A stretch of 63,823 bases of DNA, the filler included, from an uncultured Methanosarcinales archaeon (lineage in GTDB: Archaea; Nanobdellota; Nanobdellia; Woesearchaeales; CAYNLP01): NCBI GenBank assembly GCA_964398115.1. It is 4 parts of 4 records of this genome, joined end to end, with 100 filler letters (N's around TTAATTAATTAA, not from the genome) between each part and the next. Parts side by side here need not be neighbours in the genome. Positions count along the whole stretch, not along the records: positions 11,645 to 43,603 come from CAYNLP010000009.1; 3 more parts are not named here. One strand, written 5' to 3'. A model generated the notes under the pieces. That model was not told the DNA's origin, searched no databases, and saw nothing but the letters and a program-made list of their open reading frames with translations. A program made the translations under genes and the position numbers. This document shows, piece by piece, positions 18,149-42,368 of the stretch (position 1 is the stretch's first letter; each line of letters starts with the position of its first letter).

Positions 18149-21100
18149 TTAACTCGCCGAATTTTCCGACATTTCCGCGTTTTCTAATGGATTAGCTGGA
18201 CACTGTAACGAGCTAAATATACCTTCCAGTCTTCCTTGAATTATATTTTTCACTTGCTGCGTTTTTTGACTATATAATTGCTGCAAAACTCTTTGCCTGG
18301 TTTGTGCATCCCATAAACTCACTACTTGAGTCAGTACATCTTTAGGCATTACTTTCATCATTTCATCCATCGCTCTAGCTTTAGCGTCAGCACTTAACGA
18401 ATTTATTTCTTCATTAACTAATTGTACTATTTGATCTTCATCGAGTTGGTGAAGTTTTTCATATACTTGCTCTATCCTTTGTGAATCAACTTCAGGCATT
18501 ACTTGTTCTAACATTATTTCTTGAACTTGCACTCCATACTTGCCATCAATGACATCCCTCACTAATTTGTCTATTTGTTCTCTAGTGAGTTGCAAGTCGG
18601 TAACTAACTCTCGCATTTCCTCTTCGCCTGCTTCTGCGTTGAATTCAAGGTTGGTTTCGTGCAAATAATTTATGCGTTGATCTAAGTTGATTGATACTCT
18701 CCTACCTTTTTTCAACATTTCAGCTTTCCTTTCCACTGATAGTTCCGTCACAGTTTGTTTTGCAGCTTTCAAGATTAATTCTTGACTGGACTCGCTGAGT
18801 TCGGATACTTGTCTTGAAGTTTTCCTTACAAAGTTCTTTTTGTCTTCTAGTTTGGTCACGTTTGACAATTTATGCCTGGCTTTCCTCTTCCACTCTTCTG
18901 GTATTTCTCTATCTTGTACGAGATCTTGATACGTTTTTGACTTTTCTTCTGCTGTCCTTACGACTTGTTGTATGTTGTTTCTAAACTCTTCAGAGTTGAA
19001 TTCGTTTTCCACATCTCTTATGGCGTTGGTGACTACGTTATCACTTAATTCTTCACTTAGTCTGGTTTCTCCTACTTGCTTTGCTATTTCCGAATCGCCT
19101 ATTACTTGAATCGCTTTTGCTGGATTACCACTTTCTACGGCGTTGATGAAGTCGTCAGCGTTTTGAGTTATTTTAACGTAAGAATCTTTTATTTCACCTA
19201 GTCCGAGGAATTCTAACATTCTTTTCTCTATTGACACAAACTTTTCACAAGCTTGGATGGGTTCACCTCTTTGCCCGTTGCTGTCCATAGGGATGAGTGT
19301 CAAGCAGTAACTAGGGCTGGTCATTTGAGCTAGTTGGTTCATGAATTCGTTCCCACAAGTGTTCATAATGAAGCTTGTCTTATCTTGAATCTTTCGTGTT
19401 GGTATCTTTCTTGCGAAGTGCACGTTCCCATTTTCTCCTATGACTTTCATGTATTCACACGCTTTATCTTTTATCTCGGTCAATTTTTGTATCATGTCGA
19501 CTTCACTTTCTAGGTTTTGTTCTGCCCTTTGCACGTCTGATTGTAGATCGTTGAGGTATTGGTTGTCGACGCTAACTACTGAGTTTTCACTGCCTACATC
19601 TATGTCTCCTGCTGGGGTGTTTAGGCTGCACTGTACTTGGAATGCGGAAATGTCTGAAGTTTCTGGAACGTCTAGTTGGACTTGTAAAGCTGCTTTTTGC
19701 TGGTTGGGTAACATTTCCAGAATGCTTGGAGGAATTCCTAGTGCTAGGCTTAAGCCTTGAGTCACTACTTGTTCTTGTACTTGGCTGAACAAGTCTTGGT
19801 TGGATTTTTCGACTTGTTCCATGTTTACATTCACGTCTTCTTGTTTTGGTTTTTCATCTCTTAGTGTGAGTGCGAATTTAGAACGGATTGGTTTCTTCAC
19901 AGTGTTTCCATTTTCTTGTATTTTGTATTCTTTTCTTGACTCTGCGCATACGAGGAAGGTTCTCCTGTTCTCTGGGCATAACCCGATAGCTTGTTGGTTT
20001 TGTCCTTGTCCTGAAATCCCTCCTGCTACTTTTGTCAGTACTAATTTGTCTTTATTATTTTCTGGCTTGTATAAGTTCAAACTTTTATAGTCTCCAGATA
20101 GTTGTGAAGATTCTATTTCTATGTTGTTCCCCTCTTTCGTTATAGTTATGGAATCTAGTTTTTCGTTTGTATCGGCGGGTTGTGGATTATAATATGTGGT
20201 GTTTGTTTCCAGGTCGTACACTCTTTTGACGGGTTCTTCCATCTTTATCTTTTGACCTTCTAGTTTTATCTCGTAGTTTTTCGGATCATCTATTTCTGTC
20301 AAGTTCAATCTACAAACGCATCTGGCTCGATCGTTGGCAAGGCAGGTTTCAAATTCTTCCACTACTTTATAGAAGAAGTCGTATTGTTCGCATTGGCTAA
20401 CGTCATTGTAGAGTTTATAGGAATTATTTTCTGAATTGTATTGTCTTATTTTTTCTTTCAAGGTGGCTTGGGGGCTTTCATACGTTTCTTCCCAGGTGTT
20501 TCTCGCCCAGGTTATAACGCTTTGCATGTGTTTGGTAATGCCAGGTAGTTCCAAATCTGTTTTTACTTTGAAGTGTGGCATGACGGTATAGTTTGAACCT
20601 TTATTGAAGTATCCTTGATTAAGTTGTCCTTGTTCGCTTGTTCCTACGCCGGAGCATTGGCTTATACTTTCTTTGTCATAGCTTATTGTGTCTACAGTGC
20701 CTCCTCCGTATAGGTTTAGACAGTTATTAGCGGTAGGACTTGTTTGAGATTGTAAACTCTCGAGTTGGTTTTCGCTGTAAAAGCAGAAAGGATTCCTTCC
20801 TGTTTGTTGGTTTTGGCTTGTGTAAATTCCGAAGTGTAAGTGTTCTGCGCTGGACGCTCCGGTGTTACCCATCGTTCCGATTTGTTGTTCCTTATTTACT
20901 TTGTCTCCAACGTCTACGTTGACTGTTTCAAGGTGAGCGTATCTTGTGTGAAGGCCGTTGTCGTGTTTTATATACACGTAGTTGCCGTATCCGTTGCATT
21001 TTCTTTCACAATCTGGGTTGGGTTGGCATCCTTTTGGACCGCAGTTGTACAAGCTGCATGTTTGTTGTTTGCAAACATCTATCACTTCTCCACTTGCTAT

Positions 21101-21841
21101 GGACTTGATTGTTTCTCCACCTCGGTTTCCGAAGTCGATGCCGTCGTGGAATCCGTCTCCGTGTTGTCTTTGTCCGTAGCAGGAAGTAACGGCTGAGTCT
21201 TGTGCTGTTACTGGCAGAGCTAGGTCTTCATCTTGTATTGAAATGTTTTGTACCGTTGGACCTGCTATTCTTGGTCGTCCCACACCTTTTTGAACTTGTA
21301 CTGTTATGGGTTTTTGAGCTGTGCCTTCTATCACGTATTCTTCTCCTTTCTTTTTCACTTTAAATTCGTAGTTGTTTAAAGGTATGTTTACAGCGGGGTC
21401 GGGATATTTTGCTAGGTAGGATTTCATGTCTGTCTGTAAGAATTTGCTGAACGTGTTGAATTCTGTTTGTGGTTCGCAGAATTGTTGTTGTGTGGACCAT
21501 CTGTTGTAAACAAATTTTGAACAATTAGTTTGTTTCACGGAGAACACGTTGTCGGCGCCGTCAATTCCTTCTTGCCATTCACCTCCTTGGTCGTTGTATT
21601 CTTCAAAGCTTTGACGCATCGAATACTTCGCTGCTTGGTCAATATAGGTTCTTGCACTTTCTGCTTTTTGAATGGTTTCTAACAACGCGGTTTGTGCGTC
21701 TCCAATCTTTCTTTCCTCTCCTTGACTGTTTTTAATGTTGAGTTCTCCTTTCACTGCCATGTAGGAAAATATTAGTAGTGAGATGAGGGTGATTAGTACT
21801 ATGAGGCTGTACACGTATCCTTTCTTACTTTCAATTTTCAT
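18149..21841 (-). CDS. 1230-aa pilin-like-signal protein with an M23 peptidoglycan endopeptidase domain
   Basis: KKG|YVYSLIVLITLISLL; HDGIDF, GYGNYVYIKH, TRYAHL, IGTMGNTGAS..EHLHF. Confidence 0.9.
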   Translation of the reverse strand: MKIESKKGYVYSLIVLITLISLLIFSYMAVKGELNIKNSQGEERKIGDAQTALLETIQKAESARTYIDQAAKYSMRQSFEEYNDQGGEWQEGIDGADNVFSVKQTNCSKFVYNRWSTQQQFCEPQTEFNTFSKFLQTDMKSYLAKYPDPAVNIPLNNYEFKVKKKGEEYVIEGTAQKPITVQVQKGVGRPRIAGPTVQNISIQDEDLALPVTAQDSAVTSCYGQRQHGDGFHDGIDFGNRGGETIKSIASGEVIDVCKQQTCSLYNCGPKGCQPNPDCERKCNGYGNYVYIKHDNGLHTRYAHLETVNVDVGDKVNKEQQIGTMGNTGASSAEHLHFGIYTSQNQQTGRNPFCFYSENQLESLQSQTSPTANNCLNLYGGGTVDTISYDKESISQCSGVGTSEQGQLNQGYFNKGSNYTVMPHFKVKTDLELPGITKHMQSVITWARNTWEETYESPQATLKEKIRQYNSENNSYKLYNDVSQCEQYDFFYKVVEEFETCLANDRARCVCRLNLTEIDDPKNYEIKLEGQKIKMEEPVKRVYDLETNTTYYNPQPADTNEKLDSITITKEGNNIEIESSQLSGDYKSLNLYKPENNKDKLVLTKVAGGISGQGQNQQAIGLCPENRRTFLVCAESRKEYKIQENGNTVKKPIRSKFALTLRDEKPKQEDVNVNMEQVEKSNQDLFSQVQEQVVTQGLSLALGIPPSILEMLPNQQKAALQVQLDVPETSDISAFQVQCSLNTPAGDIDVGSENSVVSVDNQYLNDLQSDVQRAEQNLESEVDMIQKLTEIKDKACEYMKVIGENGNVHFARKIPTRKIQDKTSFIMNTCGNEFMNQLAQMTSPSYCLTLIPMDSNGQRGEPIQACEKFVSIEKRMLEFLGLGEIKDSYVKITQNADDFINAVESGNPAKAIQVIGDSEIAKQVGETRLSEELSDNVVTNAIRDVENEFNSEEFRNNIQQVVRTAEEKSKTYQDLVQDREIPEEWKRKARHKLSNVTKLEDKKNFVRKTSRQVSELSESSQELILKAAKQTVTELSVERKAEMLKKGRRVSINLDQRINYLHETNLEFNAEAGEEEMRELVTDLQLTREQIDKLVRDVIDGKYGVQVQEIMLEQVMPEVDSQRIEQVYEKLHQLDEDQIVQLVNEEINSLSADAKARAMDEMMKVMPKDVLTQVVSLWDAQTRQRVLQQLYSQKTQQVKNIIQGRLEGIFSSLQCPANPLENAEMSENSAS

Positions 21842-22379
21842 CTTGTTTCCATCCTTTAATGTCCATTTGGATAGGCTTTTTCTCGTTTGGGACGGGGAGG
21901 TATATCCGTCCGGTAAATCGGTGGTCTTTTCCGGTTATCAAATCTCTCATAGTTTTTTGTATTGTACCCATTAGTGTAGGGGAAGGTTGTTCTAAATCCC
22001 CGATGGTTAGGCTTTCCCCTGCCGGATATTTTATTCTTATCCCATATGGTAGTTTTGACCTTTCGTATTCAGGATGTATTTCTCGCATTTCCATTTTTAT
22101 TTCATGTTTTAAAGTTTCTCTAGCTTCTGAATCTTCGTAGCTATAAACTACCAGGTCTGCTATCGTGTCTACTTCGGAATTTCCTGACAATTGTACATTG
22201 GTTGGTCTTTTCAAAAGGTTGTTTAAGAAATGTTCTGAGGTGGTGGCTGTGAATCTTGCTTTGGTTATTTCATTTTTTTGTGCGCTTTCCCAGTTTATGA
22301 GTGTGAGGAATCCTGCGAATACTAGGAGGTATAGGACGAACATTATCACGGTTCCTATCACGCTTTGTCCCTTGTTCAT
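21831..22379 (-). CDS. Pilin-like (class III signal) protein
   Basis: MNKG|QSVIGTVIMFVLYLLV. Confidence 0.75.
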   Translation of the reverse strand: MNKGQSVIGTVIMFVLYLLVFAGFLTLINWESAQKNEITKARFTATTSEHFLNNLLKRPTNVQLSGNSEVDTIADLVVYSYEDSEARETLKHEIKMEMREIHPEYERSKLPYGIRIKYPAGESLTIGDLEQPSPTLMGTIQKTMRDLITGKDHRFTGRIYLPVPNEKKPIQMDIKGWKQDEN

Positions 22380-22867
22380 TCTGGCACCGCCACTTTCACA
22401 TCTAGTATTCCTTTGCTAGTGTTTCCGTCTTTCATTATATTCACGGGAAGCCTTTTATGATAGAGTTCTGGACTTCCTATGCCTACGAGTCCTGCTTGTT
22501 GTAATGGTCTCCAAGTTTCGTATTGTTCTTTGTTATAGTAGATTGTTTGTTCATCGCCGTTTTTCACGTTTGTAAGTGTGACTTTTGCCGCCCCTACCAA
22601 GTTTGACTCGTAGTTTATCGCACCGTCTAGGGTTGAAGTGTTGAACTTCTCCCAAGATATAGTTCCTGGGCGTGTTCGTCCCATGTCGTCAACATAGCTT
22701 ATAGTGCTTGGAGAGTATGCAATCCTTGCAAATATCATTTCTCCTCTCACTCTTGCATCTTCGAATTCGTTTCCTGAAAAGTTTTGTATTATTATCAGTA
22801 TGGATATGAATCCTAGCAGGGTTAAGGTAACGATTTTAAACCAAGTTTTGAGTGTAAAATCTACCAT
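22376..22867 (-). CDS. Single-TM protein of the pilin-like cluster
   Basis: N-terminal hydrophobic helix without a basic KKG leader; translationally coupled. Confidence 0.65.
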   Translation of the reverse strand: MVDFTLKTWFKIVTLTLLGFISILIIIQNFSGNEFEDARVRGEMIFARIAYSPSTISYVDDMGRTRPGTISWEKFNTSTLDGAINYESNLVGAAKVTLTNVKNGDEQTIYYNKEQYETWRPLQQAGLVGIGSPELYHKRLPVNIMKDGNTSKGILDVKVAVPE

Positions 22868-23284
22868 TTAGGATCCCTCTTTGAAAAGCCAAGAAGTTTG
22901 GTTTTTCACAATAGTTATGTTATCAGATATCATTCCTGACTTGATATAGTCTAGGTTTGGGTCTGAAGCGTAGGGTTGTTCTATCCCAGCTCTTTGCTGT
23001 ACTGGCTCGTCGCTCTCATCGTAGAAAGTGATTCTATTCTTTGTCGCGTTGAACTCTATCGCATATTTACTTCTTATCTCGTAAGGAAAGTTTACGTTTC
23101 CTGGAGCCGCTAATACTCCGTCTGCCAGTAAAGAAATGTCTTTAGCGTAGTATTTTCTATGAAGGTTTGAGTCACCCACCACGTTGTTTACCATCATGTA
23201 TCCGAAGATTACTATAGTAGCGGCGAGGACTATTTCTACAGCAACTTCAAGAGTTTGATTTTCACCTTTTCTGTAGAGAGACAT
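22868..23284 (-). CDS. Pilin-like (class III signal) protein
   Basis: RKG|ENQTLEVAVEIVLAATIVI. Confidence 0.75.
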   Translation of the reverse strand: MSLYRKGENQTLEVAVEIVLAATIVIFGYMMVNNVVGDSNLHRKYYAKDISLLADGVLAAPGNVNFPYEIRSKYAIEFNATKNRITFYDESDEPVQQRAGIEQPYASDPNLDYIKSGMISDNITIVKNQTSWLFKEGS

Positions 23285-23325: not shown

Positions 23326-24402
23326 TTATTGGCAGAAGTATTTGGATGTCCCTGCCGATGTGAGTTCTGCTTTTACGTTGCATCCGAGTTGGCAAGGATC
23401 CATTGCGCAATGGGATCCTTCTACTTTCGTACAGTCTTTCGCAGTTCCTGTAATAGTGGTGCCCCCGCAATAGTCGTTGCATTCATCTATTTGGGAACAG
23501 TCTATCTGTCTGTATTCAGAAGTTGTCCCTGTAACCTTGCAATATCCGGTTCTGTATGCTTTTCCGTCGCAAGCACATAATTCGGTTATTTTTCCGTCTT
23601 CACATTTTTCAATTTGGATTGCTTCGCACCGGTTCGTTGTGGAATCTTTTCGGCAGTAGTTGGTGATGACACCTTTGATTACTTCATCCGTGTAGCTATT
23701 TTGACATTCTTCATCACTGTTTTGAGAACACTTTTGTAGATGTTTATATCTGTATTTTGTGTGTGGTCCTGAATCTGTTATTAGCACGTGTTGGCGTCCG
23801 TTTTCTGTAATTTTTTCTATGTAGAATTCGTTAAGTTTTCCTATATTGTCTCCGTAAATTACAAAATGTGTTTTTTTGGATTTCATATTATCTGGCAATT
23901 CTTCATAAGCTTGTATATTTACGTTTTTGCTTTCCGCTTTTTTGTCTGTTAAAGGGGGGATTTTGTGTGCTCCCATGAATTCAAAGTTTTGATTGAAATC
24001 CCAGCAGTTGACTATTTCTCCATCGCCGTCGCCTATGTGGAAGTTGTATAGACACATGCAGGTTTGTGTATTGCACCTGTCGGGTTTTCTTACTGTCTTT
24101 ACTTCATCGTCTATATTTACTCTTACTCTTTCTCTCGCTCCGTTGTCAAATCCGGCTAGGGAGAATTTTTCTGGTATGAACAAGCTGTCTGTGGTGTAAC
24201 TCATTCCTTCTTTGCTTAGCAAGTTGTTTATTTTGTCCTTCATCTGTATTGCTTGTTCTTTTGCTGCTTCAGCTTCTGTCGTGTCTCCTGTCACTATGTC
24301 CCACGCTTTGAGTGTTAATGGAAATGCGAATAGGAGAACTACGCCTAGAAACACTATTTTTATAATGTTTTCGAGAGAGAGTAAATCTCCTTTTCTACTC
24401 AT
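23326..24402 (-). CDS. Pilin-like protein with Cys-rich C-terminal region
   Basis: MSRKG|DLLSLENIIKIVFLGVV; many C-terminal Cys. Confidence 0.75.
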   Translation of the reverse strand: MSRKGDLLSLENIIKIVFLGVVLLFAFPLTLKAWDIVTGDTTEAEAAKEQAIQMKDKINNLLSKEGMSYTTDSLFIPEKFSLAGFDNGARERVRVNIDDEVKTVRKPDRCNTQTCMCLYNFHIGDGDGEIVNCWDFNQNFEFMGAHKIPPLTDKKAESKNVNIQAYEELPDNMKSKKTHFVIYGDNIGKLNEFYIEKITENGRQHVLITDSGPHTKYRYKHLQKCSQNSDEECQNSYTDEVIKGVITNYCRKDSTTNRCEAIQIEKCEDGKITELCACDGKAYRTGYCKVTGTTSEYRQIDCSQIDECNDYCGGTTITGTAKDCTKVEGSHCAMDPCQLGCNVKAELTSAGTSKYFCQ

Positions 24403-24412
24403 ATTCTTTATA

Positions 24413-25081
24413 CTATGCCGTATTTATACAGATTGATCCTTCATCATATTCGAAATTGGAGAATGAATCGTCTTGACCGGAAAGCCATCCTTTGTTAACG
24501 TGGATATCTTCAACATCTCCATCATTTTTTGAGTGGAATATTTCTATGATACCGTCTCTGCCTCCACACATATCTAGAGGTATTACTTTGCTATGTATGA
24601 TTTCGGAATTTGTTCTGTAGAATTGTATTCGTGCTATGCTATTGTCCCCTTGCTTCGTAAATTCTATTACTAGATTGGTATCTTCAGTCATTAGATTTAG
24701 TGTTTTTTGTGTTGCTTCTTCGCAGAGTCCTTGTTCTCCTTCATTGTTCTTGCAGGAAATCAGTAGTTGTATCATTTCAGAAAAGGATTGTGTGTATTGA
24801 GCTTCTTTTTTCGCCTTCTCAGTTTGAGGTATACAGCAATTAAGTTTTTCTTCTCTGCATTCTCCTCCTGTAACTTCAGTAGTTACGTATCCTTCATCAC
24901 AGGTTTCTTTACAAACTCCATTTCCGGCTGGTCCGCCGCATGCTTTACCTGCGTTACTAAGCTCTTTACCGAAGAGTTCAATAGATTGTATGCAACATTC
25001 AAGCATGACAACCATTAGTACTCCAACGATTACTACGGTTCCTAATGTTCCGAGTAAGGTTAGACCTCTTTTGTCCATCAT
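24413..25081 (-). CDS. Pilin-like protein with defensin-like Cys motif
   Basis: DKRG|LTLLGTLGTVVIV; C-x8-C-x3-C-x13-C-x6-CC. Confidence 0.75.
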   Translation of the reverse strand: MMDKRGLTLLGTLGTVVIVGVLMVVMLECCIQSIELFGKELSNAGKACGGPAGNGVCKETCDEGYVTTEVTGGECREEKLNCCIPQTEKAKKEAQYTQSFSEMIQLLISCKNNEGEQGLCEEATQKTLNLMTEDTNLVIEFTKQGDNSIARIQFYRTNSEIIHSKVIPLDMCGGRDGIIEIFHSKNDGDVEDIHVNKGWLSGQDDSFSNFEYDEGSICINTA

Positions 25082-25117: not shown

Positions 25118-25849
25118 CTAACTTTCAAATTCGCAATTTTGTCCTTGGACATGCTCTACATAGCAGATGTCGGCGTTTTCTCCACATCCTAAGCCATTAT
25201 AGGCTCTAAGTGCTCTGTTCCAACCTTCGTATTGTTTGTAATGCTGTCTGTAGTCGGTGTAGTCGTAGTTGTCTATTTGTTTGTAATTGTCCGCGTCACA
25301 GTGACTGTTGATTTTGCTGTGATATTCGCTTTCACTCCAACTAGTTGCTTGTTCGTGTTTATCTTTTAATATTGCCAGGCCGCATTTGATGTTTTGTGTT
25401 TTATTCTTTAAGTCTGCGTCTGGGCAGATTGATTCTGCCGTGTCAGGATTTATTTGCATTATCCCGTATGACAATCCGCTACTTACCACGTTTCCTTCTG
25501 AATTGCAGTGCCTCATATTGCTTTCTTGCTGTGCAAGGTCTCGGACTAAAGGCCATGGAAGTTGTCTCGTAGGGGGGAGATCGCTGTTGAATTCTTCAGT
25601 TAGGGTTTGTAATTTTTGTTGGTTTTCGTCTTGAGTGTCGTCTCTATATGCTTGGGGGCACGGCCATGTTTCTCCTGGTTGGTTTTCTTTGTTGGTAACT
25701 CCTAGCAAAGTGTCTTTAAAACTCGCAACTAGTCCTTTTCCGGTATCTCTTGTAGGGATAACAACTGATTTTAGTACTATCACTGTTATAGCTGCTACTA
25801 TGAAGAGTGTGAGTATCGTACGCCAGGTTATTTGTCCTTTTTTCATCAT
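25118..25849 (-). CDS. Pilin-like-signal protein with soluble lytic transglycosylase (SLT/GH23-like) domain
   Basis: Likely start MMKKG|QITW at 25849; SLT motifs QQESN (catalytic Glu), YGIMQI, NIKCG..IL, ALRAYNG. Confidence 0.88.
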   Translation of the reverse strand: MMKKGQITWRTILTLFIVAAITVIVLKSVVIPTRDTGKGLVASFKDTLLGVTNKENQPGETWPCPQAYRDDTQDENQQKLQTLTEEFNSDLPPTRQLPWPLVRDLAQQESNMRHCNSEGNVVSSGLSYGIMQINPDTAESICPDADLKNKTQNIKCGLAILKDKHEQATSWSESEYHSKINSHCDADNYKQIDNYDYTDYRQHYKQYEGWNRALRAYNGLGCGENADICYVEHVQGQNCEFES

Positions 25850-25980
25850 CCGAAAATCATTTCTAGTGTTGAAGTTCCTGTTTCTGACCAGACTTGTTGT
25901 AGTGTAAGCCATACGACGAGTACGAGTGTGGCTATTATGATTGCTATGAGGACCTGTTTGCTTATTCCTTTTTTATGCAT
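25846..25980 (-). CDS. 44-aa minimal pilin (not in ORF track)
   Basis: MHKKG|ISKQVLIAIIIATLVLVVWLTLQQVWSETGTSTLEMIFG; AGGAG SD; stop overlaps the SLT start. Confidence 0.8.
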   Translation of the reverse strand: MHKKGISKQVLIAIIIATLVLVVWLTLQQVWSETGTSTLEMIFG

Positions 25981-25998: not shown

Positions 25999-26916
25999 CT
26001 ATGTTTTTATAGGTATTGGTTCTCTTTCACAATCTAGGTTTTGCAAGGTTTCATTGTTGTATTCTGCGAGGATTGTTTGTGATACGTGTTCAGGAGTTGT
26101 TTCAGAGCTTATTTTGAACAGTCCTGCTTGCACTCCAACCCATGTTATCCCTGCAGCTGTTATTCCTGTTGCTCCAACTGCCCATCCAGCGGTTACAATG
26201 CCTAAGCTGTATCCTATAAATGCTGTTTTTCCTCCTGCTAAGACTCCTGCTCCTATCCCAATAGCGTTTCCTAACTTTCCGGTTTTTGTATTACCGCTTA
26301 TTTGATCTAAGAATTGTTGTATTTCATCTCTTCCTTTCGAATAGACGAACAGGGTGGCGTAGTCTTTGTCCGTGTTTAAACCCCAATTTTTAACATTTGA
26401 TGCTTCATCTAACTTTTGTATTTGCTTGTTTAAACTTTCCAGGGTTGAACTCCCTACGGTTGAGTATCCGCTTAAGTATTCCAGATAGGTCATTTCTTTC
26501 CGGGGTATTTCGTTTTCTGCCATGTATTTGTAAAGGCCGGTTATTTCTTTTTCTCGTCCTTCAAAGCTTATTATGGAGCACGTGTGGCAGTAAGTGGCTT
26601 CTTCTTGGAATAGGTTTTCGTCTCCTTCTGAAAAGCTGTACCAGCATTTCCTCATTTCTTCTGCTAGTTTTTCTTTCACGTTGTTGGATGTTTGTATGGT
26701 TACTTGCCTAGTTGGGCATTGTATTTCACTTGCAAATGTTCTTCCACTCCACATCTTTTGTGCGGCGTGTTTTTCTGTTTCTCCTCTGCACTTTCTAACT
26801 TCTAAACTTTCTTGCGTGTTGAACATTACGGGCTTGAGGATTAAGATTAGTATTATCAAGGCGGCAGTGGTTATAACGGCGGATGTTAACAATTTTTGTC
26901 CTTTATTCGAGTACAT
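25999..26916 (-). CDS. Pilin-like protein with glycine-zipper hydrophobic hairpin
   Basis: NKG|QKLL; LAEEMRKCW...C..C; GIGAGVLAGG...GWAVGATGITAAG. Confidence 0.75.
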   Translation of the reverse strand: MYSNKGQKLLTSAVITTAALIILILILKPVMFNTQESLEVRKCRGETEKHAAQKMWSGRTFASEIQCPTRQVTIQTSNNVKEKLAEEMRKCWYSFSEGDENLFQEEATYCHTCSIISFEGREKEITGLYKYMAENEIPRKEMTYLEYLSGYSTVGSSTLESLNKQIQKLDEASNVKNWGLNTDKDYATLFVYSKGRDEIQQFLDQISGNTKTGKLGNAIGIGAGVLAGGKTAFIGYSLGIVTAGWAVGATGITAAGITWVGVQAGLFKISSETTPEHVSQTILAEYNNETLQNLDCEREPIPIKT

Positions 26917-27568
26917 GGTCGCACCTTAACTGGTTGAACTTGTCTTGTGTCATCAACATTACTGAACTATCGGCGTTGTTGAAGATAACGTCGGACCATG
27001 GTATTGTCATTCTGTCTTCGCTGAATGCTTGGTACATGACGTAATATGTTCTAGTCGTGTCTAGGTTGTTTTCAATTAAAGCGGTGTAGTTTTCGACATT
27101 AGGATAGAGGAAACTGGTGTATTTTTCTTCTCTATTCCGTATGGTTTCTTCTGATAGGAATTGTTTGAAGTTTGGGATATTTCCTGTTCTGACGTTGTTA
27201 TCAAATTTTATTTCGGCGCATTGGAAGCATACTGTGTCTCCTACTCCTACTAGTTCTTTATCGAAAGGATCTAGTTCTCCTTGTTGGAATATTTCCCAGC
27301 ATTGTCTCATGTTTTCGGCTATTCTCTTCTTGGCTTTGTCTTGATCTATTTCTTCTTGTGTGATGGTCATTTCTGCTTTGTCGCATGTGAATTCTAATAT
27401 GTTTTCGCTTGCTACTGCTTTTTGTGCTGATAGTTTGCACATGTCAAATTTAAGTTCATCTTTAGAGCTGGCTATTAATTTGTCTGTAGTTAATGTTATT
27501 GCTATCACGGCTCCTATCACGAGTGCTATCGCTATTAGTTTTTCTATAGCTATGCCTTTTTTGTTCAT
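26903..27568 (-). CDS. Pilin-like protein, paralog of 25999-26916
   Basis: MNKKG|IAIEKLIAIALV; IAENMRQCW.F..G...F.....CFQC..I.F. Confidence 0.78.
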   Translation of the reverse strand: MNKKGIAIEKLIAIALVIGAVIAITLTTDKLIASSKDELKFDMCKLSAQKAVASENILEFTCDKAEMTITQEEIDQDKAKKRIAENMRQCWEIFQQGELDPFDKELVGVGDTVCFQCAEIKFDNNVRTGNIPNFKQFLSEETIRNREEKYTSFLYPNVENYTALIENNLDTTRTYYVMYQAFSEDRMTIPWSDVIFNNADSSVMLMTQDKFNQLRCDHVLE

Positions 27569-34928: not shown

Positions 34929-37900
34929 TTTCTAAGGTGTAGGTTGGATCGTCTGGTGCTACGCCGTCGTATAGTAGTTGTAGTGTGGTTTCTATATTGT
35001 TGCCTGCCCAGTCTGTTGCTGTTATTGTCACATCGTTCATAGTTTCGTTGTTATCTCCTGCTATGTTGAAGGGCATGGTGAATTGTCCGTCTCCTCTTAT
35101 GCAGTTGTTTCCTCTTCCAGTACATGTTCCTACGCATCTTTCTTCATTGTTTCTCTCGTTCAATGCGCAGATTTGGGTTGCGTCTACAGAGATAGTTCCA
35201 GTTATCCTTCCAGTAGTTGCGCCGGTGACTTTCAATTCTCGTTCTGGGTCGAAGTATTCTGGTGGTGCTATAATTCTTGCTTCTTCAAACGCTGGGTTAG
35301 TCGTGTCTACCGTCACGGTGAAGTTTTGGATTTCTTCTGTATTGCCTCCCTGATCTTCGCTGTAGTATCTAACCATTTCTGTACCGTCAGTGTTGAAGGT
35401 CATTCGTGTTCTGTTCGCTCCTGTCGCGGTGGGGTTGCATCCTTCTCCTTTACAAGTGTAGAGTTGGTGGCATCCGAAGTTCCAATCTCTTTCGTTATCA
35501 TCTACTAGGTCTGAGCTTCTGTCGTTGCATTCTAGCGTTATGGTTGCGCTTTGCACTGCGCCTTCTTGCATTTCTCTGTTGAGTCCTGTAATTCTCGTCT
35601 CGGGTGGTATTTGGTCTATGACGAATCGTACGACGTCGTCGGGGTTTTGTTCTACTATCACGCTTCCGTCGTTGAGTGAGCATGCTATGTTGTACTCGTA
35701 TATGCCGGTTCCGGACACCTCGCTTGGCGCGGGGTTGGTGTGTTCTGTCGCTCCTGTGGTGCTGAACTCGTTTGTCATAGCATCGTATATGTGCGTGGTA
35801 GGGGAGTATCTGCAGGTGCCGGGACTTTCTGTTGTGGCGGACATTGTTATCTCGCTTGCTTGTGAGAAAGTGGTTCTTGGTTGGATGTTTGTGATTCTTC
35901 CATCTGATTCTACTACTAGGGATCGGCTGATGCCGTGTGAGTTTCTCGCGCCGTCGTAGCATTCTACGTTGAAGGTGTAAATTTCGGGTGGTACTTGGTA
36001 GCTTAGCGAGTATGTGTCTCCAGTGCCGCTTCCTGTGCGTGTGGTCCCTTCTCCGTTTAATTCCCAGTTGCAACTGATTGGCGTGGTTTCGTCATTGACG
36101 TTTATGTTTATGTCTAGTTGTGCGTTATCTGAAGCGGTTGACATTGTTGATGTGTAGGTTAAATCTATACTTGGCCGGTTAGTGTCGTAATTCACGGTTT
36201 CTACGTTTAACACTTCAAGGTTGTGGGCTGGGTCTTCGCTGTAGTACGTGATGTTGGTCTTACCAACTCCGGTTAGGTCTAGCAATATTTGATTTCCTGC
36301 TTGTGTTTGTGGATAGCACGTCCCGCGGGAGAAGCAGTAGTAAGTTTTGATATTTTCTGCGTTGTATGCGTTGTCTCTAACTCCATAGTCTATCCCTTCA
36401 TCCCATCCTATCACTCCGTCACTGTTCAAAAGAAGTGTGGTAGTTGGGTTTTCAAAATCGGTCAGGCATTTATCGTTATTATCTCCACAATCTCCTCTTT
36501 CTACACTTCCGGTTTCGGTTTGTAGGTTGTCTGCGTTTTTGACACATCCTATACCGCCAGATCTGTATTCGCATTTTCCTAGTCCTAATGCGTCGTTGCT
36601 ACGTTGTTCTACTATGTGGTTTCCTCCCACGCGTGTTCGGTCGTCGTATTGTGCGTTTACTTCAACACTTTGTCCTCCGGTGCATGCTGTTCTGTCATCT
36701 CCGTAGTCTTTGCATGTTGCTGATCCTTCACATACGCAGGTGTTATCTTCTGCTTGGAAGTAGCAGTTTCCTAAGCTTTCGCAGGTGTCTTGTGTGCATT
36801 CTTCATCTCCACTTCCGCATAGGCTTCCTAGATTTTCTGCGTTTTCATTAACGCATTTTCCTATTCCTAGGTTTTGACTGGCTGATTCTCCATATGGGGT
36901 TTTCCATTCACATGGTAGGTTTGTCCCGCATGGGTCTCCTAGACAGGTTTGTCTGCTTTCGTAATCCATGCATCCTCTTACGGGACAACTCTTGTACGGG
37001 TCGACGACTGTGCTACTGTTGTCTCGGTAGCATAGTCTGTCTTGTTGTAGTTGGTAACAGGTTAGGTCGGTTGAAGATCCTTCGTATTCTACTTCTCTGG
37101 ATGGGTCAGGGTACATTCCGTATGCTTGGTTGCATTGGTCGCAGTCGGCGGGTGTTTTGCATGATGCTCCTTGTGAGGTTTCTATGCAAACGCTGGAGTC
37201 GCATGAATTTCGGCTTTGGACTGCTCCGTTTGGCCCGCACTGTACTATGTCGTTATCGTGGCAGATGGTTTCTCCTTCTCTTCCGTTGCATAGTATGGAG
37301 CTTACTGTGATTGTTTGTTCTGAACTCGTTACTTCGGTTTGGTCTGGGAACACTGCTGTTATATTGTATGCGTATGTGGTGTCGTATTCTACAGTGGTGT
37401 CTTCGAAGTATGTGGCGGTGGTGTTTCCTACTATTTCGGTTGTTGTTTCACTTTGATTTCTTCTATGTATATAGTATTCTACTCTTGCTTGTTCACATCC
37501 CGGGTTTAAGTTCCATTCTAGTCGTATTATGCCGTCTCCTACTTCTTCTGGTTGGTCTAGTATTAGTTCTTGCGTATCTTCTGCTGCGGTGCATATTTGT
37601 TCGTCAGTAGGTGTTGGCTCGGTTGGCCCGGTTCCTCCTGTCTGGTCTGTTTCTCGTTGGACGTCGCTACATATTTGTGTGCAGTCCATATTTGAGTCTA
37701 TTGGTTCATCTTGATATTCTGTTACGAATGTGTAGGAGTCGCTACAGCTTAGGTTGGCTTGTGGTCTTACTTGTCCTCCTACGCTGATGTTGTCTTCTAG
37801 GTCGCAGCAACACCCGGTCGCGCATTCTGGCACGTTATTACAAGAGTCTTCTATGACGTCTCCTTGGCAAGAACTTTCTTGGTCTGGTGTTATGCCGGTG

Positions 37901-38028
37901 CAGAATTCGTTTTGCCTGTCTACACAACAATAGGATTCTTGTGATGTTACTAGGGCTGGTGAGAAAGCTAGGAGTATTGCTATCAGTAGTGTTATGCGCG
38001 CTTTCATACCGTGTTTCCTCTTCTTCAT
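34918..38028 (-). CDS. Large secreted Cys-rich adhesin-like protein with Fn3/Ig domains
   Basis: Signal peptide; CC..C-rich N-terminus; Fn3-like LEW..YYIHR..FEDTTV....YAYNITA; YYSED..N.E Ig repeats. Confidence 0.78.
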   Translation of the reverse strand: MKKRKHGMKARITLLIAILLAFSPALVTSQESYCCVDRQNEFCTGITPDQESSCQGDVIEDSCNNVPECATGCCCDLEDNISVGGQVRPQANLSCSDSYTFVTEYQDEPIDSNMDCTQICSDVQRETDQTGGTGPTEPTPTDEQICTAAEDTQELILDQPEEVGDGIIRLEWNLNPGCEQARVEYYIHRRNQSETTTEIVGNTTATYFEDTTVEYDTTYAYNITAVFPDQTEVTSSEQTITVSSILCNGREGETICHDNDIVQCGPNGAVQSRNSCDSSVCIETSQGASCKTPADCDQCNQAYGMYPDPSREVEYEGSSTDLTCYQLQQDRLCYRDNSSTVVDPYKSCPVRGCMDYESRQTCLGDPCGTNLPCEWKTPYGESASQNLGIGKCVNENAENLGSLCGSGDEECTQDTCESLGNCYFQAEDNTCVCEGSATCKDYGDDRTACTGGQSVEVNAQYDDRTRVGGNHIVEQRSNDALGLGKCEYRSGGIGCVKNADNLQTETGSVERGDCGDNNDKCLTDFENPTTTLLLNSDGVIGWDEGIDYGVRDNAYNAENIKTYYCFSRGTCYPQTQAGNQILLDLTGVGKTNITYYSEDPAHNLEVLNVETVNYDTNRPSIDLTYTSTMSTASDNAQLDININVNDETTPISCNWELNGEGTTRTGSGTGDTYSLSYQVPPEIYTFNVECYDGARNSHGISRSLVVESDGRITNIQPRTTFSQASEITMSATTESPGTCRYSPTTHIYDAMTNEFSTTGATEHTNPAPSEVSGTGIYEYNIACSLNDGSVIVEQNPDDVVRFVIDQIPPETRITGLNREMQEGAVQSATITLECNDRSSDLVDDNERDWNFGCHQLYTCKGEGCNPTATGANRTRMTFNTDGTEMVRYYSEDQGGNTEEIQNFTVTVDTTNPAFEEARIIAPPEYFDPERELKVTGATTGRITGTISVDATQICALNERNNEERCVGTCTGRGNNCIRGDGQFTMPFNIAGDNNETMNDVTITATDWAGNNIETTLQLLYDGVAPDDPTYTLENEE

Positions 38029-38058
38029 TTTTTGGACTATAATATTATATAAATGTTT

Positions 38059-39513
38059 TCAGCAAGTAGCGGATCCTGGAGGTATGGCTTTAAACCTTAA
38101 TTCTAAGGGGATTGTTCCGGAAGTGGAGTCGTAGAGGCCTTCGCTGTCGTGAACGCTTATGTGTATTCTTTTTATTTCTATACAGTTCAAGCTTCCACCA
38201 TCGCATGTACATTCAAACTGATGATTAAAGTTAAACTTATTTTCTTTTGGTATTAATTGATTAACCATAGGTGGTGGAGGAGGGGGAGGTGTATAACCAA
38301 CAGGGTTTAATTCCCAGTGTAGTTTTTCACTATCTGGAGATATTATGAATTCGGAAAGGTTAAGTTCTAGTTCGTGTTCTCCTACTTCTCTTGTGTAGTT
38401 TATCACATGCATTTCCGGTACTATTGGTCTTCTGTTTTCAATGTATCCTTGTATCATTAGTTGTTTTCCGTCTACCAAGCTTTCGGTGTCTATAACTCTT
38501 AGGAGGTCGTCGTGTTTCCATTTTTCTCCGTAGCTTTTCTTTCCTGTGTAGTTTTTGAGCACGTTTACTTCGAAGCCTTCTCTGCGGAGGGGGCTTTTTC
38601 CTTGTGAGAGGTTGTAGGTGATGTTGCGTACTTCTTGTTTTAGTATGTCTCTCGTGTATTCGTATAGTTGTTTGAATCTAGCGTCTATCCTATGTTCGAA
38701 GTTTATGTTGAGGGTGACGGGTGGTTGTCCTGCTCTGCTTACTTCGACGGGGTATGTGACGTTGACTTTTACGTCTGTCTTTCCAAACGTGTAGGTGACT
38801 CTAGGCTTGTTTAACACGTCGATTTGGTATCCTTGCTTTTCTTCGAAATCGTCGAAGTTTGCGCATCTTGGCAGGTGTGTCTGTGTATAGTTTTTCAGTT
38901 GTAGTTGGACCGGGTTTTCTGACGGTCTGCCGTATCGTCCTTCGCATGTGCTGTAGACTTCTGGTCGGTTGATGTTTCCTTTCCAATTAGATCCGTTTAT
39001 AGTACAGAGACGGTGGGTGTTTCGATATCCTGCGAATCCTGAATTTGTGTATAACGGGCATTGTTCGTTCCAATACTGTAATGATTTGAGTTGTGTTATG
39101 TTCGCCCCATCTTTAGGGTATTGTGGCGGTTGTGAGTTTATATTTGGGCATCCGGTGTAGGTGATGTTTTTTAGAAGGTATGTTACGTTGTATTTCCTGT
39201 CTTGTGTTTCTGGCTTGACTTGAGCGTAGTTTGTTCCTGGCGTTCCTGTTTTTTCTACGGTGCCGTTTTGTTCTTTCCATAATATTCCTCCTTGGTATCC
39301 TGCTAGTTGTAAGGCGTTTTCGCTGACGCTTTGTATGCAGCTTTTCACGTAGCTTCTTACGCTGTTGCTATCGAGGAATTCTTGTACGGCTTGTTCTGCT
39401 TCTTCCTTGTTTGTTTCGGATTGTATGCTGGTGGTTGCGAAGTATACGATGGCTATGGCTATGAGTGCGAGGAGCCCAAATACTACGAGAATTGTGAATT
39501 GTCCTTTACGCAT
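38059..39513 (-). CDS. Pilin-like (class III signal) protein, 484 aa
   Basis: MRKG|QFTILVVFGLLALIAI; YVKSCI.......L...GYQGG; poly-Pro near the C-terminus. Confidence 0.8.
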   Translation of the reverse strand: MRKGQFTILVVFGLLALIAIAIVYFATTSIQSETNKEEAEQAVQEFLDSNSVRSYVKSCIQSVSENALQLAGYQGGILWKEQNGTVEKTGTPGTNYAQVKPETQDRKYNVTYLLKNITYTGCPNINSQPPQYPKDGANITQLKSLQYWNEQCPLYTNSGFAGYRNTHRLCTINGSNWKGNINRPEVYSTCEGRYGRPSENPVQLQLKNYTQTHLPRCANFDDFEEKQGYQIDVLNKPRVTYTFGKTDVKVNVTYPVEVSRAGQPPVTLNINFEHRIDARFKQLYEYTRDILKQEVRNITYNLSQGKSPLRREGFEVNVLKNYTGKKSYGEKWKHDDLLRVIDTESLVDGKQLMIQGYIENRRPIVPEMHVINYTREVGEHELELNLSEFIISPDSEKLHWELNPVGYTPPPPPPPMVNQLIPKENKFNFNHQFECTCDGGSLNCIEIKRIHISVHDSEGLYDSTSGTIPLELRFKAIPPGSATC

Positions 39514-39524
39514 AGGTCACCTCT

Positions 39525-42368
39525 TTATCTTAGTTGAGTACGGCCGCTGAGAAGGTTCCAAGCTTGACTTTCCGGATTTTTCAAGATGAGTTCGTTGTCA
39601 GTTATTCTGGAACTTTCTGCCCTCACAGAGTTATTAATTTCTTCGTAACTCACTCCAATATTTTGGTATTCTACTGTCATGTAATTCACTCTTTCCTGAT
39701 TCTCTATGTCATACGTGTTTTCCATCAAAACTTTTATCCTTTGATCCCCTCTTTGTTGTAAGTATATCTTGTCAAAGTCTTGTAGTCGTGCGCTGAATTC
39801 CTGTTCTATGCCGATTAGGGATTGGAAGAATCTTACTATTTTATCCCATGTATTTCCGTCAGTAGCGAAGAATCCTCCACTATAGCTTCCAGGTTCTTTT
39901 GATAGCATTATTATTTTGCTGTTAGCGTCGTAGTATACTGCTAGGTTGGGCATGACGGCACATTCTTCGAATCCGAAAGTTTCGTTGTCGCAGTTGTTTT
40001 CCCACTCTTCCGGATTGGCGTTTGGATTCCTGCTAATGTATTCTGCTCTTAAGTTATCCATATAATTACTTATGGCGTTGTCATCTTGTTCATTGCCGAT
40101 ATGCGTAGCTACTAACGCCGGTTGGTCTTCTCTTACCAACGCGCAGTATTCACTCGTTTCCCCTGTGTTGGCTGTAGTTATTAAGCTTCTTGCTTTATCG
40201 TCACAGTATAGTTTGAAATTGTCATTGTTTAAGTCTACTTGTGTTAGTAGTTTTTCTGCAACCATTCTAGTCCTTGATGTCCAATTACCATTGAGGCAAT
40301 AATTGTTATCCTGCCAATATCTTGTGTCTCTACACCCTTCATCTAATTCTAAACCTAGCAAGCATTGGTTTTCTTCAGGACAGTAGCCTCTTTCTGTTTC
40401 GTCCATGCTTCTTTTCAAAACGGGGTCTCTCACCCACTCTCCTCGTTGAGTTTCTGCATTGTAAACACAGGTATAGGGTATGTATTGTCCTGCGCTTTCA
40501 TCGTAGCACGCTACGGTGGCATTTGGCACGTTAACTGCTGAGCTAGTATGGTTATAGTTTATGCCTCCAAGATGGCGTGGTGTTTGTAGGTTGTTCCAGC
40601 TTATTCTATCTGTTGCTGTTCCTTGACATTCTGCCCAGTATGGGTATTCTGTTGGTGCTTCTTTTCTATTTCCGGTGTGAGATACTGCGGAATCATTCTC
40701 AGTGTTTCCTTCGCTAACGCATCTACAATTGTCTGGTGCGCTTGGATCACAGGAGGGATAATCATCAGCAGCGCATTCTGTAACGTTCTGAACATATTTG
40801 CTTCCGCTTTGGTAACAGGTGCAGTAATGATTACTTCCGTCTGATGCTGAAACTAGAGGGATTGTGGAAGCAGCTTTTCTAGCATCCTCAGTGTTAGTAT
40901 CTTTTGACGCTGGACCTCCAGGTAAAGGATCACAATTTTCTGGATCGAAAGTGCACTGGTATTGTGTGGAACAGTCTGAATCACTACATTCTAATCTCTG
41001 AAGCATGTATCCTTTTCCACAATGCGTTCCTCCCGCTGGTGAACTTGTATTACAACCGATGTTATTCCAGGTACAAGTGTCTTCATTGCATGACGCACTA
41101 GTTCCTGTTATGTATTTTGGAGCGTCTGCATCAGGGTTAGGTTTAACATCTAAATATTGGCTGTTCCAAGTTGTGATGACGTCGCACCTGCCTGGAGCGG
41201 GTTGCCAATCCGCTCTTTTTGAAAGGAGTGAAGCATTTGTGTTCTGGTGATCTCGTAGTATTTCTCCCTTACACATTTGTGTAGGTAAATCTACTATGTC
41301 TAAACCGTGTCTTTCTAAGAAAACTTGATTACAATAATCTTTTGACGCTCGTTTCCAGGATTTATTTATACAAAATTGATTATTTCCATTAGTCACCACG
41401 TATGTAGCATTGTCTTCTGGATCGTTTCCACAACATGCCAGGCTTGGATCCGTTTCATTTACTTTCTGACTCCAATCATTACCGTTAGCTAGACAGTACT
41501 CTCTTTTTTCTGTGTTTACCGTTCTCAAGGCACATTGGTATCTGAATTTTCTGTCCTCTTCTGGCTCCCCACTATGGTACGATCTCATCCCAACTAAAAA
41601 GCCGTTTCCACAATCTACTGCAGATCCTTGCCTCCATTCATTTGGAGAAGTCCAACTTGTAATGTTGTAAGGATCGTTATTTGCATCGGTGCTCATACAA
41701 GCTTGATCATCTCCACTATCAGCGTTTAATTCACCCCGACAGTGATCCTGTGAGTTTTCATTCATCCCTTCTGGATAGCAGCATTGATATTGCCATTTAC
41801 TATCGTCAGCTGAAGATCCAAAGTCTGTATCTTGATCATATGCTTTTACTCCTGCTAGGTAACCTTGACCACAGTCAATTCCGGAACTGTAATCTTCTTG
41901 GTTTTCTGTCGTCCAATCATTACATGTAACTCCTGGAGCAGTTTCTCCTGAAACAGTACAGAAGTCATCGGGGTCGTCGCCTTGATCACGACATATTTCT
42001 ACGGATCCATTGTCCATTCCTTGATTGTATCCACATTTTACCATGAACATTCGTGCGTTGGCGTCATCATCATATTTTGAGCTTATTCCTGCTATGAATC
42101 CTTCTCCACAATGAATCCCCCATGCCTCTTCACCATCAAAGTTAAGTCCCCAGTAAGTGTCTCCAGTGTTATACCAGTAGCTAGTGTTTGTCATGTAAGG
42201 GTTATCTACTGACGGTTCCGGGCACCATTGGTTTTCTCCAGGAGATCCACAAGACTCGTAGTTTATTTCTGTGCCTTGTGAATACGCGGGGAGTGGTCCT
42301 GCTTGTACTATGGTTGTTAGGAGTAGTGTTGAGAATAGTATTGTTAGTATGGTTGTGGTTTTTTTCAT
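39525..42368 (-). CDS. Large secreted Cys-rich protein with dermatopontin-like repeats
   Basis: Sec signal; three CG.G(F/Y)..G..S...D..(F/W).Y.C repeats. Confidence 0.72.
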   Translation of the reverse strand: MKKTTTILTILFSTLLLTTIVQAGPLPAYSQGTEINYESCGSPGENQWCPEPSVDNPYMTNTSYWYNTGDTYWGLNFDGEEAWGIHCGEGFIAGISSKYDDDANARMFMVKCGYNQGMDNGSVEICRDQGDDPDDFCTVSGETAPGVTCNDWTTENQEDYSSGIDCGQGYLAGVKAYDQDTDFGSSADDSKWQYQCCYPEGMNENSQDHCRGELNADSGDDQACMSTDANNDPYNITSWTSPNEWRQGSAVDCGNGFLVGMRSYHSGEPEEDRKFRYQCALRTVNTEKREYCLANGNDWSQKVNETDPSLACCGNDPEDNATYVVTNGNNQFCINKSWKRASKDYCNQVFLERHGLDIVDLPTQMCKGEILRDHQNTNASLLSKRADWQPAPGRCDVITTWNSQYLDVKPNPDADAPKYITGTSASCNEDTCTWNNIGCNTSSPAGGTHCGKGYMLQRLECSDSDCSTQYQCTFDPENCDPLPGGPASKDTNTEDARKAASTIPLVSASDGSNHYCTCYQSGSKYVQNVTECAADDYPSCDPSAPDNCRCVSEGNTENDSAVSHTGNRKEAPTEYPYWAECQGTATDRISWNNLQTPRHLGGINYNHTSSAVNVPNATVACYDESAGQYIPYTCVYNAETQRGEWVRDPVLKRSMDETERGYCPEENQCLLGLELDEGCRDTRYWQDNNYCLNGNWTSRTRMVAEKLLTQVDLNNDNFKLYCDDKARSLITTANTGETSEYCALVREDQPALVATHIGNEQDDNAISNYMDNLRAEYISRNPNANPEEWENNCDNETFGFEECAVMPNLAVYYDANSKIIMLSKEPGSYSGGFFATDGNTWDKIVRFFQSLIGIEQEFSARLQDFDKIYLQQRGDQRIKVLMENTYDIENQERVNYMTVEYQNIGVSYEEINNSVRAESSRITDNELILKNPESQAWNLLSGRTQLR

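Follow-up and report, generated by a model that had tools for sequence, protein, structure and literature searches.

We analyzed a 64-kb stretch of DNA (63,823 nucleotides from the archaeal genome assembly GCA_964398115.1; hereafter the window), which carries at 18149-42368 an operon for small proteins with pilin-like N-termini, two predicted murein hydrolases and large cysteine-rich secreted proteins. On balance, we lean towards reading this conserved operon as one for the extracellular components of a type IV filament-like surface apparatus, whose lytic enzymes, equipped with pilin-type N-termini, act on bacterial cell walls. An initial annotation of the locus, made from the sequence alone, had presented it as a new system; this proved too strong a term, since murein hydrolases of DPANN archaea, the inference of bacterial hosts and the functionalisation of archaeal filaments are already in print. 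The region 18149-42368 contains 21 co-oriented open reading frames (ORFs) of at least 80 amino acids (aa), all on the minus strand and 80-1230 aa in length. They are packed at a coding density of 0.979 (97.9% of the region), with a largest intergenic gap of 149 bp, and 10 of the 20 gene junctions overlap or abut. The co-orientation described initially was confirmed; the count of about 23 genes was not. We labelled the genes from g01 (18149-21841), the last of the operon, to g21 (39525-42368), the first, and all locus coordinates given below lie on the minus strand. For 17 of the 21 locus proteins, neither Pfam nor NCBIfam returned a family.

The feature that unites the operon is a class III-like N-terminus, defined as (K/R)(K/R/T)(G/A) followed by a hydrophobic helix. 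A strict pattern required [KR][GA] among the first 40 aa and, no more than 8 aa further on, a 15-aa window with a mean Kyte-Doolittle value of at least 2.0. It matched 25 of the 216 six-frame ORFs of at least 60 aa in the whole window, and 17 of these 25 were locus genes. These 17 included g19, which reads as a Sec signal, and the pattern missed g16 (KTG|Q), which is class III-like. Of the eight matches outside the locus, six fell on short spurious ORFs that overlap others or lie antisense, one on an internal site of a DUF2238 protein, and only one on a plausible membrane protein, which is DsbD-like. In the final count, 17 of the 21 locus genes have a class III-like start, against eighteen in the initial annotation; g03 has the helix without the motif, and its orthologues in four related loci carry KKA, KKG or RKG. 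Exactly one hydrophobic segment, at residues ~1-39, was present in each of 18 proteins (g01-g17 and g20), and shorter Sec-type signals were found instead in g18, g19 and g21. Glutamine at +1 is frequent among the pilin-like proteins of the locus, and is also the +1 residue of Epd pilins. The other large secreted proteins of the window, encoded at 45282-52730 (-) and 62248-63663 (+), have Sec-type signals and no class III-like start, so the motif is a property of the operon and not of the general secretome. These N-termini, weighed with the evidence below, make the pilin-like proteins of the locus probable substrates of a prepilin-type pathway.

A type II membrane anchor would likewise present one N-terminal helix behind basic residues. 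The proteins might then be uncleaved signal anchors, that is, membrane-tethered ectoproteins including the two murein hydrolases, which would digest bacterial walls on contact or scavenge their fragments without any filament. We regard this as unlikely, though it is the most serious competitor. Anchors need no Gly or Ala at -1, yet this residue is kept in 29 of 32 members of the g01 family described below, and eighteen genes of this design stand in one operon in a window whose other secreted proteins use Sec-type signals.

Further evidence on this point came from g16. Four consecutive genes, g17 (32015-32518; 167 aa, KKA|Q), g16 (30942-32018; 358 aa), g15 (30460-30945; 161 aa) and g14 (29954-30463; 169 aa, KKG|Q), encode pilin-like proteins and keep their order in L005, a related locus on a Ca. 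Woesearchaeota contig. Searching with a profile built from g16 and the orthologue in L005 recovered 37 proteins including both queries, a family of uniform length (35 members of 337-382 aa and two 198-aa fragments) in which no Pfam domain was found. Source names were available for five members, four from Ca. Woesearchaeota and one from Desulfosarcina (protein P0170); the latter label is probably a binning error. Across the 35 aligned sequences the majority fraction was 0.74 for residues 1-35 versus 0.38-0.45 elsewhere, with a near-invariant Q-F-N-W stretch at the N-terminus and Glu at +3. This pattern of conservation resembles that of pilins, and so extremely conserved a helix speaks against a simple anchor. 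The structural model of g16 (pLDDT 84.5, pTM 0.82) consists of one 48-residue N-terminal helix (residues 10-57), a beta domain and a helical bundle.

The smallest products of the operon are those of the tandem paralogues g13 (29674-29916), g12 (29350-29616) and g11 (29096-29353), which are 80-88 aa in length and in which a class III-like start and the helix lead into a six-Cys module. Their size is that expected for a major subunit, and we consider them candidate major subunits on this basis. The same Cys module follows the helix in the class III-like proteins g10 (27712-29094; 460 aa) and g06 (24413-25081; 222 aa, 12 Cys). A PDB profile search with the g11-g13 paralogues gave nothing under E 0.59, and an Atlas search for g10 gave low scores only (0.75). 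Further class III-like proteins of the operon are the Cys-rich g05 (23326-24402; 358 aa, 20 Cys) and the paralogous g09 (26903-27568; 221 aa) and g08 (25999-26916; 305 aa), with an orthologue in L005.

Wall-lytic domains on two of the class III-like proteins, an M23 domain in g01 and an SLT domain in g07, were claimed by the initial annotation and confirmed here, with intact catalytic motifs in both. The 1230-aa g01 protein has a KKG|Y start, an N-domain at aa ~35-210, an M23 domain (PF01551) at aa 231-344 (Pfam E 4.5e-25; 88.1 bits vs a cut-off of 28.7) and a long C-terminal region. In the M23 domain, the zinc and catalytic motifs HxxxD and HxH, as well as the catalytic His between them, can be aligned to solved M23 enzymes, and H232, D236, H303 and H334 are invariant over 32 aligned sequences (g01 and its relatives). 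A Cys-rich insert lies inside the M23 domain and is common to the family. In about a third of the g01 relatives, though not in g01 itself, HLD replaces HLH, with Asp in place of the second His. A model of g01 aa 1-460 (pLDDT 79.5) showed a LytM/lysostaphin fold, and Foldseek matched it to lysostaphin, LytM, DipM and EnvC LytM domains (4qpb_B, E 1.4e-9, TM on target 0.82; 4bh5_A, TM on target 0.83). By these features, g01 is an intact M23 endopeptidase, predicted to act on murein.

To place g01 among its relatives, an exhaustive HMMER search was run with aa 1-1200. This returned 38633 proteins at E <=0.001, mostly through the M23 domain alone, and 11 at E <=1e-30. Among the best 150 matches, 31 align from their own N-terminus, and these resemble g01 in their basic-G/A start and helix, in the conserved N-domain and in the place of the M23 domain. 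The motif [KR][KR][GA] stands ahead of the helix in 29 of the 32 aligned sequences (these 31 and g01); of the other three, one has Ser at -1 and two appear truncated N-terminally. When any of the first 12 start codons was allowed, the basic-G/A-helix start was found on 6 of 8 archaeal M23 ORFs vs 4 of 72 bacterial ones from the loci described below. Together, these two counts argue that the motif tracks the g01 family rather than M23 as such. Three full-length family members had named sources, labelled archaeon or Candidatus Woesearchaeota; these came from a profile search with an alignment of g01 relatives in which 8000 candidates, dominated by M23 domains, were scored.

The domain content of the g01 relatives bears on the likely substrate. 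A Pfam scan of 37 HMMER matches found M23 in 33 and no domain in 2, and at least two murein-directed domains were present in 18. SLT was found in 13 proteins, Amidase_2 in 5, and NlpC/P60, VanY, YkuD, 3D and glucosaminidase in one each. SLT and Amidase_2 enzymes need N-acetylmuramic acid (MurNAc), which pseudomurein does not contain. Since the family repeatedly recruits enzymes specific to MurNAc-peptide murein, these data argue for a bacterial wall as the substrate. They also bear on the idea that the hydrolases would remodel the archaeon's own murein-like or pseudomurein wall so that a surface structure can pass. VirB1-type lytic transglycosylases open the producer's own wall in this way from within bacterial secretion and pilus operons, and the locus resembles those operons in having an SLT gene embedded among genes for a putative surface filament or secretion apparatus. 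Unlike VirB1 producers, the source here is an archaeon, and no Mur-type or other wall-synthesis gene was found among the 42 flanking ORFs of at least 100 aa in the window. A literature search for murein or pseudomurein synthesis in DPANN archaea gave no such report, and the Amidase_2, VanY and SLT domains added within the family act on MurNAc-containing murein. We therefore judge own-wall remodelling very improbable.

The second enzyme, g07 (25118-25849; ORF 25118-25912), has a class III-like start (KKG|Q) and an SLT/GH23 domain (PF01464; E 1.8e-10, 40.9 bits vs a cut-off of 21.3). In an alignment to the SLT domains of 8 relatives, its ES (with the catalytic Glu), GIMQ and AYNG motifs line up. 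No match to PDB sequences was found at E 0.01, and a word-index search returned only g07 itself. The C-terminal part of g07 resembles the SLT part of a fused M23-SLT protein in L001 (E 1.4e-6), and what is one protein there is accordingly two genes here, g01 and g07. We conclude from the motifs that g07 has an intact SLT/GH23 lytic transglycosylase domain, predicted to be murein-active.

Two such enzymes might also be exported rather than displayed. A type II secretion-like pseudopilus could free the hydrolases as soluble bacteriolysins, which would serve competition and not attachment to a host. Secreted haloarchaeal murein hydrolases do kill bacteria, according to the accessible text of PMC12352652, and a secretion role for a Tad-like machine is left open in that of PMC8460266; the class III-like start, for its part, would go on processing. 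The hydrophobic helix would, however, stay on g01 and g07 after cleavage, which favours retention in the membrane or in a filament over release, and the operon holds many non-enzymatic pilin-like and large adhesin-like proteins. On these grounds the release of bacteriolysins seems improbable.

The adhesin-like proteins lie at the upstream end of the operon, where the initial annotation had placed three very large Cys-rich/Ig proteins. The three proteins were found, at 809, 1036 and 947 aa, but an Ig-like domain was identified only in the first, and a class III-like gene lies among them. The 809-aa g18 (32499-34928) has a Sec signal, 20 Cys, an Ig-like Big_13 domain, a C-terminal membrane helix and a basic tail. 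Secretion via Sec-type signals is likewise indicated for g19 (34918-38028; 56 Cys), which has a weak OmpL47-type domain match under the cut-off, and for g21 (46 Cys), which has no family match. The intervening gene, g20 (38059-39513), encodes a 484-aa protein with the start MRKGQ followed by a helix, and its nearest Atlas cluster is a Woesearchaeota hypothetical protein (score 0.94). Elsewhere in the window, a run of genes at 4581-10217 (+) encodes an HMA-domain protein, a DsbD-like protein (5093-6058), a cupredoxin (8277-8774) and a DsbA/thioredoxin_4 protein (9303-10217). This run looks like an extracytoplasmic disulfide/copper module suited to many Cys-rich secreted proteins, and its DsbD-like and DsbA/thioredoxin-like products fit the many extracellular cysteines of the operon.

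We also examined related genomes. GTDB species genomes scanned with an 8-sequence alignment of the g01 family returned 80 loci, of which 8 are on contigs of archaeal metagenome-assembled genomes (MAGs) and gave the best or near-best matches; the other 72 are bacterial, match in the M23 domain only and served as controls only. The archaeal contigs are labelled archaeon (L001), Nanoarchaeota (L002), Ca. Woesearchaeota (L003 and L005), uncultured archaeon (L004), Ca. Aenigmatarchaeota (L006 and L011) and Methanosarcinales (L007). The RadA and RPA proteins of L007 are 66% and 48% identical, respectively, to those of the window, and because they resemble these DPANN-type genes L007 is probably mis-binned. 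A synteny search had been proposed with the initial annotation, and gene order was indeed conserved in Woesearchaeota and Nanoarchaeota MAGs, with the M23 gene beside RPA. In L005, a gene for a large Cys-rich protein is followed by 12 co-oriented ORFs (11 of them class III-like), the last of which encodes a 1045-aa M23 protein, and then by RPA and a YdjM-like gene. Orthologues of g17, g16, g15, g14, g04, g01, RPA and YdjM were identified there by phmmer in the same order. A four-gene module formed by g01 and the small N-terminally anchored proteins g04 (22868-23284), g03 (22376-22867) and g02 (21831-22379) keeps the order g04-g03-g02-g01 in L001, L002, L003 and L005, as judged by phmmer or hidden Markov model (HMM) matches for g03 and g04 and by position and weak alignment for g02. 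RPA comes next after the M23 gene in L002, L005 and L007, as it does in the window. Iterative HMM searches among the loci drifted via the shared N-terminal helix, and only first-round or positionally supported links were used. In L003, the M23 protein also bears GDSL lipase and C39-like peptidase domains, a g04-like protein has a metallophosphoesterase domain, and a nearby polysaccharide deacetylase has a basic-hydrophobic start (1058-3064 and 7775-11494 on the plus strand, 16315-17073 on the minus strand); other lytic activities are thus attached to the same cluster.

A tree of M23 domains (81 rows, 129 columns, quick search) grouped the window with L001-L006 at an SH-aLRT support of 90, under the star threshold, and left L007 and L011 unresolved. 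A single clade of all 9 archaeal rows was not rejected (p-AU 0.751), which is consistent with, but not proof of, one origin of the archaeal M23 domains. The archaeal, DPANN-type source assumed at the outset held: with RadA, RPA and RNase P p30 in the flanks and Woesearchaeota/Nanoarchaeota MAGs as nearest relatives, the locus is, from these sequences, DPANN-type and Woesearchaeota-like.

The same comparisons bear on a mobile origin, either as a provirus tail or ejection module or as a conjugation system with a VirB1-like hydrolase. In PHROGs, the M23 domain of g01 matches tape measure, endolysin and minor head protein families, its PDB relatives include phage internal proteins, and GC is slightly raised at 30-38 kb (0.43-0.47 vs about 0.37-0.41 in the flanks). 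Against this, PHROGs gave no match for 20 of the 21 locus proteins, and no capsid, terminase, integrase, VirB4 or coupling protein was found in the window or the related loci. The cluster also occupies the same chromosomal place beside RPA in L002, L005, L007 and the window, and the single archaeal M23 clade was not rejected. A mobile element is the least probable of the explanations considered, with hardly any weight left to it. On the points given, the provirus, the conjugation system and own-wall remodelling were all rejected as readings.

The strongest link between the favoured filament-like apparatus and known type IV machinery came from the two Aenigmatarchaeota loci. One strand of L006 carries first the gene of a T2SSE-type ATPase (E 1.2e-16; the fetched stretch has its edge inside this ORF) and then that of a 722-aa membrane protein. 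Several class III-like ORFs come next, and after them a glucosaminidase-like ORF, an M23 protein and a 299-aa protein. The glucosaminidase match, on a class III-like ORF, is under the cut-off, and the 299-aa protein matches the N-domain of g01 with the membrane helix excluded from the model (E 1.3e-11). In L011, a 651-aa T2SSF platform protein (27 bits vs a cut-off of 25.2), pilin-like ORFs and a 615-aa M23 protein are likewise encoded on one strand. The L011 platform protein and the 722-aa protein of L006 are 35% identical over 684 columns (E 3e-146). The ATPase gene ahead of the platform gene was seen in L006, the one MAG where that DNA was fetched. An Alba gene ends both clusters (L006:11463-11987, L011:11995-12291), and their position is therefore conserved within Aenigmatarchaeota too. 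Of all the evidence, the adjacency of a related M23/pilin-like cluster to a platform gene most moves the odds, and it lends the filament link independent support. Simple membrane anchors give no reason for a related cluster to be contiguous with a platform gene in L006 and L011 and with an ATPase gene in L006.

Several observations weigh against a filament, and three of them also favour uncleaved anchors. The first of these three is that no curated pilin model matches: Pfam class III and pilin models were unmatched at E up to 10 for 9 proteins and up to 0.01 for all 21, and NCBIfam pilin and class III models were unmatched at E up to 0.1. The second is the lack of core machinery in the window, as stated in the initial annotation and verified here: no T2SSE ATPase, T2SSF platform or A24 prepilin peptidase was found among the flanking ORFs. 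Filament core genes were also absent from the fetched parts of L001-L005 and L007. The third is that the N-terminus of the g01 family is no better conserved than the rest of the protein (0.40). In addition, the helix in the g01 model is broken (6-34, then 48-84) rather than one long helix, and a 1230-aa subunit is bulky for a filament. For the g16 model, Foldseek found no credible neighbour in PDB (best TM on query 0.17) or BFVD, so the pilin fold stays unconfirmed. That the Aenigmatarchaeota and Woesearchaeota clusters are homologous depends on the M23 domain, the one N-domain match noted above and weak similarity of the small pilins. The absence of core genes from the window is nevertheless compatible with a filament, because in DPANN archaea the ATPase and platform genes sit side by side while the pilin genes are dispersed, and filament core parts, a signal peptidase among them, occur in most of 2942 genomes (PMC13705601, accessible text). 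The authors of that study call it unclear whether a functional structure is formed from such scattered genes. The pilus or pseudopilus proposed initially thus gained from the platform gene adjoining the Aenigmatarchaeota cluster and lost from the unmatched pilin models and the g16 structure search.

If the favoured reading is correct, a prepilin-type peptidase encoded elsewhere in the genome would cut after the Gly or Ala of the class III-like starts, and an ATPase and platform protein, also encoded elsewhere, would assemble g11-g13 into a short filament or pseudopilus. The g14-g17 set would prime the filament base, and the larger pilin-like proteins would be accessory or tip subunits. Having the same N-terminal design, g01 and g07 could be built into the structure or held at its base; that the two enzymes are physically part of the filament is a tentative proposal, less probable than the apparatus itself. 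The Sec-secreted Cys-rich giants g18, g19 and g21 may aid adhesion. On contact with a bacterium, g01 would cut the peptide cross-links and g07 the glycan strands, both locally, and the outcome would be access to a bacterial host or prey.

Individual parts of this proposal have precedents. In the accessible text of PMC8204110, the large murein-like lytic transglycosylases found in Woese- and Pacearchaeota are read as a sign of bacterial hosts, among them fam00969 (GH23 in 53% of members, medians of 1947 aa and one membrane helix). That of PMC9723730 reports GH23 genes and reads them as "vampiristic", and PMC10936187 mentions GH23 genes briefly. Haloarchaeal M23 and glucosaminidase proteins kill bacteria, and the same report lists M23 homologues in four Nanoarchaeia; in its accessible text only Sec and Tat signals are considered (PMC12352652). 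The hydrolases in these four papers share with ours murein-directed domains, a predicted extracellular location and hosts or prey read as bacterial. As far as their accessible text shows, they are stand-alone proteins with Sec, Tat or unspecified signals, in contrast to the class III-like starts and the conserved pilin-like operon described here, and the words "pilin" and "class III" do not occur in the main texts of the four.

Binding proteins with class III signals have in turn been proposed to functionalise archaeal filaments (PMC13705601), in whose accessible text "peptidoglycan", "hydrolase" and "transglycosylase" do not occur. The bindosome-type filaments of Sulfolobales and other archaea described there resemble our locus in that non-structural proteins have a pilin-type N-terminus and the base machine can be encoded elsewhere. 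Their cargo consists of sugar-binding proteins beside ABC transporters, whereas the cargo here would be murein hydrolases in a pilin-like operon of about 20 genes; a domain scan of the locus found no binding-protein or ABC transporter domain, and it is therefore not a bindosome by that measure. Epd-type (system 1) methanogen pili, the commonest DPANN pilin type in the same source, are similar in their small pilins, many pilin genes and separate core genes. They differ in that the proteins here match no curated pilin family, and a six-Cys head module and enzyme-bearing members are not described for Epd pili in the text available.

The closest functional parallel is Kil, the Tad-like apparatus of Myxococcus xanthus, in which a machine of the filament superfamily is likewise tied to local degradation of prey peptidoglycan at the contact site and whose genes are split over two loci (PMC8460266, accessible text). 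Kil is a bacterial system that includes a secretin and parts in the outer membrane, and which factor does the lysis there has not been identified. The likeness is a functional analogy only. Unlike Kil, the lytic enzymes here are identified and pilin-like, and the motor genes are those not seen. We raise as a possibility, which we hold less probable than its alternatives taken together, that Woesearchaeota- and Aenigmatarchaeota-type DPANN archaea possess a contact-dependent bacteriolytic filament machine with enzymes as pilin-like subunits, which would be the archaeal equivalent of the predatory Kil/Tad machinery of bacteria. A pilin-like operon context for such hydrolases was not found in the open literature (a search that did not reach subscription journals, closed bioRxiv supplements or, for PMC13705601, tables S4/S5 and figure S10). 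What is new is the combination of two things each known already, the murein hydrolases of DPANN archaea and archaeal type IV filaments that carry functional proteins.

The operon is flanked downstream, on the same strand, by the gene for an RPA-like OB-fold protein (16833-18092) and upstream, also on the same strand, by RNase P p30 (42430-42981); RadA, a TRAM protein and LigT are encoded beyond. An extremely basic 139-aa ORF at 42365-42784 (-) overlaps the RNase P p30 gene in another frame and is most likely no gene. AT skew is strongly negative over the whole operon. Large secreted proteins encoded outside the operon include a 711-aa PKD/PEGA protein and a DUF11 protein. A PIN-domain protein at 2003-2395 (-; E 5.5e-18) is possibly the toxin of a toxin-antitoxin pair.

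The cultivated DPANN archaea named in the literature consulted all live on other archaea (PMC11291902, abstract), and bacterial hosts of the uncultured Woese- and Pacearchaeota have so far been argued from single hydrolase genes. The locus makes the bacterial-host hypothesis concrete, as it offers candidate filament subunits, an ordered four-gene set and two enzymes with testable activities, together with the prediction that a prepilin peptidase and a filament ATPase are needed; its proteins and genes also offer antigens and probes for host finding. An apparatus of this kind would add lytic enzymes to the binding proteins known as cargo of type IV filaments in archaea and, if the reading is true, abundant DPANN archaea would be cross-domain parasites or predators of bacteria.

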